This document shows positions 27,121 to 46,626 of a stretch of 64,000 nucleotides of DNA, piece by piece. Position numbers and translations under genes: made by a program. Each line of letters starts with the position of its first letter. Within the stretch, counting starts at the first letter, position 1. Under the pieces are notes generated by a model. The model was not told the origin of the DNA. It did not search any database and saw nothing but the letters and a program-made list of their open reading frames with translations. Source of the stretch: an uncultured Chloroflexia bacterium. GTDB taxonomy: Bacteria > Chloroflexota > Dehalococcoidia > DSTF01 > JACRBR01. The stretch is taken from contig CAVTNG010000004.1 of assembly GCA_963736015.1 (NCBI GenBank), positions 39,920-103,919 of the forward strand. The letters run 5' to 3'.

Positions 27121-27197
27121 GGCCCCGTGGTGTAGCGGTCTAACATGCCACCCTGTCACGGTGGAGATCGAGGGTTCGAATCCCTTCGGGGTCGCCA
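27121..27197 (+). tRNA. tRNA-Asp(GTC)
   Basis: Acceptor GGCCCCG/CGGGGTC, anticodon arm CCACC-CTGTCAC-GGTGG, TTCGAAT loop, encoded CCA. Confidence 0.97.
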
Positions 27198-32470: not shown

Positions 32471-32486
32471 AACGACAACATTTCGA

Positions 32487-32621
32487 AGCGCCAGGCCCTT
32501 CCGGAGTTCGGAGGGGTGACGAGGTAGAGGTCGATCGAAGTACTCGGCGGATGGCCTCTCGGTTTGCACAGCCGTGATGGACGGAACAAAACGCGGCGGG
32601 TAACCGCCCGACAGAGACCGC
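32487..32621 (+). ncRNA. glmS ribozyme (GlcN6P-activated self-cleaving riboswitch)
   Basis: AGCGCC cleavage site, P1 CCCTTCCG/CGGAGGG, TGACGAGG, ATCGA..TCGGCGGATG, ACAAAAC..GTAAC..ACAGAG; upstream of glmS. Confidence 0.9.
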
Positions 32622-32832
32622 TCCAGCGTGCACTTCCTCACCGCAAACGACTTCCGCAGTTTCGATGCTCACAGTTGATGTGCGACCGGCCCGCGCGTAG
32701 CGGGCGACAGCGCCGTGCGTTCACGCGCGGAAAGGACACGATGCGACCTCATCCAAACCAGCATGTGGCTCCAAATCCCGGTCACCGTAATCCCCATGCA
32801 GCGCGCCTAACGTCACCGACGGAGGTCCACTG

Positions 32833-43815: not shown

Positions 43816-43995
43816 CTGGCCACCCTCCCATTTCCTTCAGGCCTGGACAGCTTAGAGCAGCGTCCCCCTCGCTGCCCTGCGCTGCCCGTAAGAACTGCGT
43901 AAAATCGCAGCCCGCACCACCCGCCGGGCGCTCTTCGGCGACGCCTCAGCATGCCGATACTTCGTCGGGGAAGCCACACTGGCGGAGGGTCACGC

Positions 43996-44605
43996 ATGAA
44001 TTCAGATTCGAGGCGGTCGGGCCAGGACGCTCCCGGGACCGGGACGACGGTCGAGGCGCTTCTGCAGGCGATGATCGTCTGGGATCAGGACAACTACGGG
44101 CACTGTCGGAGGTCGGCAGAATACGCGGTGCTGATCGGGCGCGAGATGGGCTTTGGCGAGGAGGCCCTCGAGAACATCCGGATCGGGACTCTGCTTCACG
44201 ATATCGGCAAGATCGGGGTCGACCTCGCCCTGCTCCGAAAACCGGGCCGGCTCGACGCTGACGAACTGGAGCGCGTGCGCATGCATCCGGCAATGGGTGC
44301 CGACATCCTCGGCCGCGTGCTCCCCGCCGCCGTGGTGGAGATCGCGGCGGCGCACCACGAGCAGCCCGACGGCGGCGGCTATCCGGATGGCCTGCGCGGC
44401 GACGCCATCCCGGTGGGGGCGACAATTTGCCGTGTCGCCGACGTGCTGGACTCGCTGACCACGAATCAGACCTACCGCACGGCCATGAGCCTGGACGAGG
44501 CGCTTGATGAGCTTCGAATCGGGCGTCGGCAGCCGCTATGGCGAAGCCGCCGTCGCGGCCCTCGTAGCCGTGGCCCAGCGCCAGGCGCTTCAGACCGCGG
44601 CCTGA
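43996..44605 (+). CDS. HD-GYP phosphohydrolase with intact motifs, frameshift near the 3' end
   Basis: GH, LLHDIGK, HHEQPDGGGYP, VADVLD. Confidence 0.88.
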
Positions 44606-44629
44606 GACGGTCTGAGTCCGCGATGACTC

Positions 44630-44673
44630 TTACGGCTCGTTTAATACTTGGTTAATCGGTGCGGGGCTACGAT
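44630..44673 (+). promoter_or_regulatory. Promoter with 11-bp-spaced direct repeats
   Basis: TTAC-N7-TTAA-N7-TTAA then TACGAT -10 at 44668. Confidence 0.55.
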
Positions 44674-44679
44674 GCCGTT

Positions 44680-44823
44680 GTAACCAGTACCAAGGCAATA
44701 AACCTCCTGCACTTGGGAACTGCCGGGCCGGGACGCTCACAATACGTAGGGCCGTAGAATCAGCGCCCTGGCCCCGAATAGACCGGATATCGCGAGGGTA
44801 GCCAACCCTCGCGATTTTCTTTG
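44680..44823 (+). ncRNA. Candidate small regulatory RNA with anti-SD loop
   Basis: Three stem-loops between a promoter and an intrinsic terminator; no credible ORF. Confidence 0.6.
44789..44823 (+). terminator. Intrinsic terminator
   Basis: ATCGCGAGGGT-AGCCA-ACCCTCGCGAT followed by TTTCTTTG. Confidence 0.85.
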
Positions 44824-44849
44824 TTCCGCCCCGCGCCTAGAATCCACGC

Positions 44850-45632
44850 ATGCCATTCGCCCCGGTCAACGGCATCGAGCTGTACTACGAGTCGCACGGG
44901 AAGGGGCCGGCGGTCGTCTTCGCACACGGGGCGGGAGGGAATCACCTGTCGTGGTGGCAGCAGGTTCCGGCGTTCGCGAAACGCTTCCGCTGCATCACCT
45001 TCGACCATCGCGCTTTCGGGCGGACGCTCGATGGCAAGGGCGAGGCCGAGCTCGGCCGCCGCGGGTTCCACGACGACCTCCGCTCGCTGCTCGATCACCT
45101 CGAAATCGACCAGGCCCGCGTCGTCGCGCAATCGATGGGCGGGCGCACTGCGGTCGGCTTCGCGCTGCGCAATGCGGGGCGCTGCGCGGCGATGGTCCTC
45201 GCGGGCACGACGGGCGGCGCGGTCGACGACGAGGTACGCGAGATGCAGGATGCTTACCGCGAGACGGAGGTGGGGCAGCTGCCGCTGCTGAAGCGGGCAG
45301 TGTCGCCCGAGCTCAAGGAGCGGGCTGAGAATCTCGACTTCCTCTACCGCTCAATCTCACGCCTCAACCCGCCGCGTCCACGCGACTTTCTGGCACCGAT
45401 CCCTGGTTATCGTGGCAGTTCGGCGGAGCGGCTTTCGCAGGCCGGATTCCCGATCCTGTTCCTCGTCGGCGATCAGGACGCCGTCGTGCCGCGCGAGATC
45501 ATCGAGCGCTGCCATCGCGCGGTACCGGGATCACGCCTGGCGGTCATCAAGGACAGCGGCCACTCGACCTATTTCGAGCAGCCCCACGCCTTCAACGCGG
45601 CCGTGATGGAGTTCCTGGAGTCCACGCTCTGA
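44850..45632 (+). CDS. Alpha/beta hydrolase
   Basis: HGAGG, AQSMGG nucleophile elbow, GDQD, SGH. Confidence 0.9.
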   Translation: MPFAPVNGIELYYESHGKGPAVVFAHGAGGNHLSWWQQVPAFAKRFRCITFDHRAFGRTLDGKGEAELGRRGFHDDLRSLLDHLEIDQARVVAQSMGGRTAVGFALRNAGRCAAMVLAGTTGGAVDDEVREMQDAYRETEVGQLPLLKRAVSPELKERAENLDFLYRSISRLNPPRPRDFLAPIPGYRGSSAERLSQAGFPILFLVGDQDAVVPREIIERCHRAVPGSRLAVIKDSGHSTYFEQPHAFNAAVMEFLESTL

Positions 45633-45633
45633 C

Positions 45634-46626
45634 TCAGCCGACGCCGAGCAGCTCGACGTCGAACACCAGCTCCGCGTTCGGCGGGATCGCTCCGCCGGCG
45701 CCCCGTGCGCCGTAGCCCAGCTCCGGCGGGATCATGAGCTGGCGCTTTCCGCCCACCTTCATCGAGGCGACGCCCTCGTCCCAGCCCTTGATCACCTGTC
45801 CAACACCAATCACGAACTCGAACGGCTGGCCCCGGTCGACGGAGCTGTCGAACTTTTTTCCGTTCGTCAGGCGGCCCGTGTAGTGCACGGTCACTTTCTT
45901 TCCTGTGGTGGTGCGGCGCCGCGCCGATGGCCTCATCGACATACTTCAGTCCGCTCGGATGTCGTGGTTGCGTCGGGCATCGTGATTCCTTTCAGGCGTA
46001 TTGGTGGTGGTCGTGTCGGGTTCTTGACGTCGAGCAACTCGACGTCGAACACCAGCGTTGAGCCAGCCGGAATGCTGCGATTGCGCGACGGTGCCGTACC
46101 CCAAGGACGCAGGGATGATCAGGCGACGCTTGCCGCCCGTCTTCATGGTCCGAAGGCCTTCCTGCCAGCCCTTGATTACCTGGTTCAGCGGAAACGTCGC
46201 AGGCTGGCCGCGATCGACGGAGCTGTCGAACTTCGTGCCGTCTACGAGCCAGCCCGTGTAGTTCACGGTCACGTTCGACGTCAGGTCAGGCGAGGGACCG
46301 TCCCCTACCTTCTCGTCGATGTAGCGTAGCCCTGTCTCGGTCGTCTGGATCTGAGCCGCGTCGAGCGGCGGCGCGCCGGGCACGTTGCCGTCCGTCTGCT
46401 GCTGCGCGGCCGGATTGTCCGCCGGACGTGATGCCGGCACCGTAGCGGCCCCGGCGCCAGACGTCGCGGCGCCCGAGCCCGATGTCGCCGTCGTGGGCCG
46501 CACGCCGCCCGTCGTCTGCGTCGCCCCGCCACCCGATGCCGCGCTCTTCGCGGTGTTATCGTTGCTGTCGCTCCCGCACGCCGCGAGCAGCACCGCCGCG
46601 ACGAGCATGAGCCCCAGTACCCTCAT
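45634..46626 (-). CDS. Two-domain FKBP-type peptidyl-prolyl isomerase lipoprotein, frameshifted
   Basis: LAAC lipobox; two copies of YTG.L..G.KFDSS.DRGQP, VIKGW, LGYG. Confidence 0.85.

Follow-up and report, generated by a model that had tools for sequence, protein, structure and literature searches.

With few exceptions, the known regulators of phosphorus metabolism in bacteria are described as proteins (PMC11522486), and the phosphate-regulated small RNAs (sRNAs) are few. One example is PhoS of Bacillus, reported to derive from the 3' untranslated region of phoPR, to be induced by phosphate starvation and to need the Pho response regulator (PMC11522486). Another is PsiR1 of Synechocystis sp. 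PCC 6803, whose promoter is described as carrying putative pho boxes recognized by the PhoB homolog SphR; according to the same description this RNA of about 500 nucleotides (nt) shares a transcript with the gene downstream and possibly codes for two small peptides (PMC6596454). SphR is reported to bind at least three tandem 8-base-pair (bp) repeats of the consensus CTTAACCT with 3-bp linkers, and the Pho boxes of E. coli are placed 10 bp upstream of the -10 hexamer (PMC1906773). A further point of comparison is RsaE/RoxS of the Firmicutes, in which unpaired C-rich regions are reported to pair with Shine-Dalgarno (SD) sequences and to block translation, and which is under the control of the OmpR-family two-component regulator ResD/SrrA (ResDE) (PMC4409812). 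Few regulatory RNAs are known in Chloroflexota. Here, a stretch of 64,000 nt from an uncultured Chloroflexia bacterium (the window; its genome is termed G000) was analyzed and a predicted sRNA gene of approximately 143 nt at window positions 44680-44822, + strand (G000:C4:84599-84741), was followed through related genomes. Judged by its sequence, the element defines a new, previously uncatalogued RNA family of a kind that is already known, namely terminator-ended sRNAs that carry a C/U-rich anti-SD motif and are controlled by a two-component system, and its promoter suggests that phosphate starvation probably turns it on.

The predicted transcript runs from a G at 44680 to the U tract (44816-44823) of a terminator. 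The start was placed at this G since sequence conservation among relatives begins there (GTAGGG in most, GTAACC in the window), and both ends are predicted positions. The minimum-free-energy fold of 44675-44823 consists of exactly three stem-loops (SL1 to SL3; -62.3 kcal/mol, z = -4.78), and none of 200 dinucleotide shuffles of this segment folded as well. SL1 (44685-44722) displays the apical loop AUAAACCUCC, in which CCUCC at 44703-44707 is a candidate anti-SD seed. SL2 (44725-44774) has a 13-bp G+C-rich stem and a large apical loop with an inner 4-bp UACG/CGUA hairpin. SL3 (44789-44825) was identified in a terminator scan as an intrinsic terminator and is the sole terminator-like site in 44000-45500; its 11-bp stem (44789-44815, seven G-C pairs, 5-nt loop) is followed by TTTTCTTTGTT. 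The coordinates of the repeats, the -10 hexamer, the three stems and the terminator given in a first-pass annotation of this DNA all agree with the sequence.

A covariance model (R1; 162 positions, 32 pairs) was built and matches the window copy at 100.5 bits. When 32 homologs were aligned to R1, 94.7% of the cells formed standard pairs, compared with 32.6-42.1% when the partners were slid by 1-3 columns. An alignment fitted to R1 favors the modeled structure. Changes on both sides were found for 27 of the 32 modeled pairs, and none of 500 shuffles matched any observed measure. These changes are spread over SL1 (9 of 9 modeled pairs), SL2 (10 of 13) and the terminator (8 of 10), so that compensatory changes are present in all three helices. 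Folding of the same R1-fitted alignment with RNAalifold, without constraint, returned the identical three helices; in this fold no conserved alternative (antiterminator) pairing appeared and the conserved 5' GUAGGG did not pair with other parts of the RNA. In SL2, 99.0% of the cells are paired across the 32 homologs. The inner hairpin claimed for the window copy is present there, but an apical SL2 hairpin of any kind forms in only 13 of the 32.

On the opposite strand R1 scored at most 23.7 bits, compared with 51.7-156 bits on the + strand. Several modeled pairs include G-U and the T tract is found on the + strand only; like the promoter and the scores under R1, these features identify + as the functional strand. 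A reading of the block as a gene for a small protein was rejected, as sequence inspection found no ATG or GTG inside the window copy and the length changes in loop and linker among homologs do not come in multiples of three. In principle the terminator might belong to an upstream gene, and the block might then be a DNA-level arrangement of terminator and promoters for the flanking genes with no functional RNA. However, compensatory changes preserve RNA pairing and not DNA sequence, which argues against a DNA-only regulatory block; in addition, the upstream gene varies while the block stays constant, and the block has a promoter of its own. This alternative is barely credible. The conserved promoter elements, the variable upstream gene and the second copies in other contexts (see below) all point to an independent transcription unit, in line with the stand-alone transcript that the first-pass annotation had put forward and that sequence analysis supports through a conserved promoter and a terminator of its own. 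That these loci form a real, independently transcribed sRNA family is considered highly probable.

The family has a narrow distribution. Using blastn, the core 44702-44774 was found in 12 of 24 genomes of the organism's own family (Dehalococcoidia-labeled Chloroflexota), and the R1 search extended this to 28 of 36 genomes and 17 of 19 genera; one family genome without a match (G021) is flagged as unpublished, and setting it aside gives 28 of 35. No R1 match was obtained in 57 genomes from four sister families of the order or in a class-wide sample of 146 genomes outside the own family. When 185,579 species genomes were scanned for an exact pattern, 105 loci were obtained, 100 of which were scored with R1 (L116-L120 were left out). 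Nineteen of these 100 are true members (51.7-156 bits), all from metagenome-assembled genomes (MAGs) labeled Dehalococcoidia, Chloroflexia or Chloroflexota, and the best non-member reached 15.8 bits. A stricter pattern gave 11 loci in metagenome contigs, every one of them a true member. Including the metagenome copies the RNA family has 43 members, and its uncultured host lineage from soil is known from MAGs alone. The restriction to one family makes the impact of the finding moderate.

The sRNA region did not match any Rfam 15 family at gathering thresholds. At E <= 10 the sole match, ASpks (16.2 vs 52 bits), is put down to chance and lies upstream of the region on the minus strand, and nine family members searched at E <= 1 gave no match on the sRNA. 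The earlier remark that the RNA was not recognized as an Rfam family thus holds for the window copy and nine other members, none of which is matched by a curated covariance model. Among the matches listed in a literature search on Chloroflexi/Dehalococcoidia sRNAs nothing relevant was found. The only matches in the window above Rfam gathering thresholds are a glmS ribozyme at 32476-32633 (77.5 bits) and a tRNA gene at 27121-27194.

The promoter of the sRNA has a distinctive organization. In the window, the + strand direct repeats TTAC (44630-44633), TTAA (44641-44644) and TTAA (44652-44655) follow each other with an 11-bp period ahead of the -10 hexamer TACGAT (44668-44673) and represent a candidate PhoB/SphR-type (Pho-box-like) binding array. 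The pattern TTAAY-N6-TTAAY is present in the promoters of 29 of the 32 homologs; in 24 of these 29 a third repeat, TTAN, lies another 11 bp upstream, and the array is found in all 11 metagenome members as well. Spacing is nearly fixed, with the proximal TTAA starting 27 nt before +1 in 28 of the 29 repeat-bearing homologs (28 nt in the window copy) and TAnnnT at the expected -10 place in all 29. There is no -35 hexamer at the sRNA promoter, where the proximal repeat fills that position and ends 11 nt before the -10 hexamer, as in class II activation of the PhoB type. A scan with the sigma-70 consensus found no full promoter, as expected of an activator-dependent promoter. The first-pass annotation had read the 11-bp-period repeats as OmpR/PhoB-family boxes, and they lie where activators of this family bind.

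A partial palindrome also spans the -10 hexamer and the start site (window 44664-44685, GGCTAC...GTAACC), which in many relatives takes the form CCCTA-N11-TAGGG. In one genome (G020) both arms change together (CTCTA...TAGAG), which may reflect an operator or chance. The palindrome was considered as an operator and not adopted, being only partly kept among relatives.

The same repeats occur at the phosphate transport operon. Scanning four genomes for TTAAY-N6-TTAAY gave 8 (G000), 7 (G041), 8 (G009) and 4 (G018) distinct loci, compared with 0-1 matches per genome for a reversed-pattern control; the promoter of the sRNA and a pst operon promoter are among these loci in each of the four. In the family as a whole, pstS was found at 23 places and 21 upstream regions were examined, two having been dropped (L164 from the unpublished genome G021, and L179, the second piece of the L176 gene). 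Repeats lie upstream of pstS in 18 of the 21 loci, typically as four units (TTTACC, then three TTAAY); one locus (L172) has a variant array with TTTAC in the middle, and two loci without repeats belong to distant paralogs (42-44% identity). The offset from the proximal TTAA to the -10 hexamer is 15 nt at both the pstS and the sRNA promoters. In the window genome the operon is located on the minus strand of C12:4500-13000 (L245) in the order pstS-pstC-pstA-pstB-pstB-phoU-response regulator-histidine kinase, with three to four TTAA repeats before pstS and a divergent glucose/sorbosone dehydrogenase gene. PstS, PstC, PstA, PstB and PhoU at this locus all score above the NCBIfam cut-offs; the linked regulator (C12:6476-7156) is of the OmpR family and the kinase is PnpS/PhoR-like. 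In every one of the four genomes, it is the pst locus that contains the best match to the PhoB model.

A Pho-box array at the -35 position is therefore common to the sRNA (29 of 32) and to the pst operon of the same organism (18 of 21 loci), with differing flanks. Because boxes are shared between the sRNA and the pst-phoU promoter, control most likely lies with the phosphate two-component system, and co-regulation of the sRNA with the pst operon is likely. The assignment to a regulon was based on the plain TTAAY-N6-TTAAY pattern and its rarity instead of weight matrices. Other genes recur next to the motif: a histidine phosphatase in G000 and G018 (71% identical), glycosyltransferases and Methyltransf_23 proteins in G000 and G009, and GFO_IDH_MocA oxidoreductases in G041 and G009. 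The further motif loci of the window genome (C8:37857, C7:57313, C7:62047, C10:268225, C12:356982 and C12:362079) neighbor genes for a histidine phosphatase, PHP-like, cNMP-binding and PPDK_N-domain proteins, methyltransferases and an APH-type kinase, and a GT2 glycosyltransferase. These loci may make up the remainder of a regulon for phosphate starvation, one that might extend to lipid remodeling.

Stems, repeats, -10 hexamer and CCUCC loop all recur in relatives from at least 17 genera. CCUCC is invariant in the 32 homologs (ACCUCC in 29) and is present in all 11 metagenome members, while the other bases of the SL1 loop vary. Situated at the 3' side of this loop in the consensus structure, it is the only invariant unpaired stretch of at least 5 nt. 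The 5' GUAGGG is conserved in the family, and a second CU-rich motif in the linker between SL2 and the terminator is found in 18 of 32 members. The SL2 stem is conserved in sequence and structure, and its apical loop of approximately 16-26 nt starts with CACAA and has AGA near the end.

These observations suggest an sRNA of the Pho regulon that acts in trans by pairing with SD sequences. Under phosphate limitation the pst-linked response regulator would be activated, bind the two to three TTAA(C/T) repeats that replace the -35 element and recruit RNA polymerase to the TAnnnT -10 hexamer. The RNA of about 143 nt would be made and terminated at SL3, its exposed (A)CCUCC would pair with GGAGG at ribosome-binding sites, translation initiation would be blocked and the output of targets lowered, with SL2 perhaps serving in stability or protein binding. 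The regulatory part of this proposal is fairly well supported, whereas mechanism and targets are what we infer from the loop; for the proposal as a whole the chances appear evenly balanced.

Several points weigh against it. The pst-linked response regulator reaches 228.6 bits, below the PhoB cut-off of 296.2, and the kinase 284.4 bits, below the PhoR cut-off of 334.2. The flanks of the TTAA cores differ systematically, reading cgTTAAyc at pstS sites and ttTTAACA at sRNA sites. A matrix from 17 pstS sites gives the 29 repeat-bearing sRNA promoters only 5.1-17.6 bits, compared with 20-28 bits for the best genomic sites; three sRNA promoters without paired repeats score 7.2, -2.2 and -5.4 bits. 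These low scores of the two-repeat matrix arise from the flanks and a small pseudocount, and a three-repeat pstS matrix misses the sRNA promoter because the repeat spacing differs (11+11 at the sRNA, 11+10+11 at pstS). The window copy itself is a family outlier; it is atypical because of its GUAACC 5' end, its short linker, from which the second CU-rich motif is missing, and its R1 score of 100.5 bits compared with up to 156 for other members. The tight linkage of the sRNA to a downstream hydrolase gene (27 of 30 family loci) has no explanation in the proposal. No target was found either in a search for SD-positioned complements of the loop or in a duplex ranking of 7543 crude starts, which covered G000 only and gave no interpretable signal, and since CCUCC would match any strong SD, specificity is not accounted for.

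The difference in flanks and the low matrix scores leave room for a paralogous regulator. Another OmpR-family protein with a similar half-site might bind the sRNA repeats, and the RNA would then answer a different signal. The dissimilar spacing agrees with this, as does the number of OmpR-family paralogs (13 matches to the PhoB model in G000), and the TTAA-N7-TTAA core is also used by unrelated regulators such as CtrA. The motif is, however, rare (4-8 loci per genome) and in four of four genomes it marks both the sRNA and the pst promoters; the offset to the -10 hexamer is identical, and other motif neighbors are phosphatase-type genes. Control by such a different regulator is considered unlikely.

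For the Pho-controlled, SD-pairing sRNA, the anti-SD step draws on the invariance and unpaired state of CCUCC and on the analogy with RsaE/RoxS; translational repression by this route is a tentative assignment, held at somewhat below even chances. Of the first-pass claim of a translational repressor, the seed part stands, CCUCC being invariant and unpaired, while no target was found and the one specific candidate failed the co-variation test. This candidate was the gene for an FKBP lipoprotein (45946-46626, minus strand), which has GGAGGTTT, complementary to AAACCUCC of the window copy, so that its SD matches the loop over 8 nt. It was rejected because in 21 relatives the SD does not follow the loop sequence.

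With no mRNA target found in the scans, a role in binding a protein or in sponging another RNA has to be weighed, in which SL2 would be the functional module. Its conservation in sequence and structure, which includes a divergent second copy, and the CACAA ... AGA loop ends are compatible with this. Repeated protein-binding motifs of a known kind are absent, however, and the only invariant unpaired stretch is CCUCC, the complement of the SD core, which makes the idea improbable. The motif could be read in yet another way, as CCUCC of the SL1 loop is what we take to be the anti-SD core of the 16S rRNA 3' tail. An RNA mimicking this tail, made in quantity in phosphate starvation, would compete with ribosomes for SDs across the transcriptome. 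If so, translation would shift from SD-led mRNAs to the sizeable leaderless class, including that of the conserved neighboring hydrolase gene. Instead of repressing particular targets, the RNA would then change the mode of translation globally, and this switch would be tied to the ribosome as the largest phosphorus sink of the cell. This is regarded as very improbable. A search of the G000 assembly with a short motif did not find the 16S 3' end.

The gene downstream of the sRNA (44850-45632, + strand) encodes an alpha/beta hydrolase (Pfam Abhydrolase_1, E = 9.6e-28). Its -10 hexamer TAGAAT (44838-44843) lies six bases before the ATG (the two together span 44838-44852), without an SD sequence, and a TAGAAT-like -10 at 6-7 nt before the start codon recurs in relatives. 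Among long open reading frames of the window genome, TAnn[AT]T peaks 6-9 nt before ATG (30, 13, 13 and 10, compared with a background of approximately 3), which indicates that leaderless genes form a class in this genome. The earlier claim that the hydrolase has its own -10 is thus borne out by a leaderless spacing that is kept in relatives and fits this class. The hydrolase follows the sRNA within approximately 30-270 nt in 27 of 30 family loci. Such proximity would suit an RNA transcribed as the 5' portion of a common unit with the hydrolase and acting in cis as a leader or attenuator with conditional read-through of the terminator, and a precedent exists in the pho-box-driven PsiR1 of Synechocystis, described as an sRNA yet joint with the downstream sll1552 (PMC6596454). 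A read-through transcript would, however, carry a leader unfit for a gene that has its own -10 and no SD. The terminator is strong, no conserved antiterminator pairing was detected in the alignment fold, and the second copies in G000 and G050 lie in other gene contexts with no hydrolase downstream; the same conserved -10, lack of alternative pairing and hydrolase-free second copies speak against a riboswitch or cis-leader of the hydrolase. The linkage may also be plain family-level synteny. Two tandem genes for FKBP-type peptidyl-prolyl isomerases (45706-46626, minus strand, convergent with the hydrolase; a short one at about 45706-45900 and the lipoprotein-like one) keep their place beside the sRNA-hydrolase pair in most relatives, and because the whole block is syntenic, linkage alone is no proof of a functional tie. 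A joint unit is judged decidedly unlikely. Relatives show a conserved promoter-like TTGCG...CACAAT upstream of the long FKBP gene.

Upstream of the sRNA and outside its unit lies a gene for an HD-domain (HD-GYP-type) protein (43951-44606, + strand; Pfam HD_5, E = 6e-26). Although the first-pass annotation had pointed to HD-GYP genes as a linked context, the association is loose, with such a gene upstream in only 12 of 30 family loci. By comparison with the genes of five relatives, the window gene is frameshifted near 44514-44516 (window 44505-44606). The reading ...DELR goes on in another frame (SGVGSRYGEAAVAAL...TAA*), giving the C-terminal 33 residues and ending at the TGA of 44604-44606, while the mechanically called open reading frame extends to 44655 in the wrong frame. 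The frameshift is either an assembly error or the mark of a pseudogene.

Several genomes have more than one sRNA copy. The second copy of the window genome, outside the window at C4:211860-212004 (L156:2861-3005), is divergent (44.9 bits); it has kept the CCUCC loop and the SL2 stem sequence, has a different terminator and is preceded by a CTACGAT -10 and by TTAA repeats 22 nt apart. It stands back to back with a gene for a secreted metallophosphoesterase with TSP3 repeats and approximately 740 nt upstream of four tRNA genes. G020 has three near-identical copies of the sRNA-hydrolase pair on three contigs (L009/L149, L014 and L015/L129), and with a MAG contamination of about 5% these could be true duplications or could stem from redundant strains in the bin.

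Beyond the first-pass annotation, the analysis adds the family-wide covariation, the narrow phylogenetic range and the link to the pst promoter boxes, and this link turns the notion of two-component control into a specific and testable phosphate hypothesis. It provides a defined RNA family with a covariance model, a predicted activator and a predicted inducing condition, together with a first sketch of a putative Pho regulon in an uncultured soil lineage that would comprise the pst operon, a histidine phosphatase, glycosyl- and methyltransferases and a secreted phosphoesterase.

Set against the described systems, the promoter resembles the reported SphR/PhoB Pho boxes in its TTAA(C) core, its 11-bp period and its replacement of the -35 element, with TTAN-N7-TTAA-N7-TTAA ending 11 nt before the -10 hexamer; it differs in that the flanks are not the same at sRNA and pstS sites, and binding by a Chloroflexota regulator is a prediction. 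PsiR1, as far as its description goes, is likewise an sRNA directly upstream of an enzyme gene, and the box type reported for SphR, with TTAA-core repeats at an 11-bp period, is like the one found here (PMC1906773); the RNA presented here is shorter (about 143-177 nt), is closed by a strong terminator and lacks a conserved reading frame. The resemblance to PhoS as described is confined to the predicted phosphate control, as the RNA presented here is encoded at a separate locus, under a Pho-box-like promoter of its own. With RsaE/RoxS it has in common the short terminator-ended form, a C-rich unpaired motif and, as predicted here, OmpR-family control, the mechanism being a predicted one as well. 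It differs in phylum, in the absence of an Rfam sequence or structure match, in displaying CCUCC instead of C runs, in the number of motifs (four C-rich regions in RsaE/RoxS, but here a single invariant one, joined by a CU-rich second in only 18 of 32 members), and in its signal, probably phosphate as compared with nitric oxide/redox. The RNA is thus not a member of RsaE/RoxS, but by analogy it may work in a similar way.

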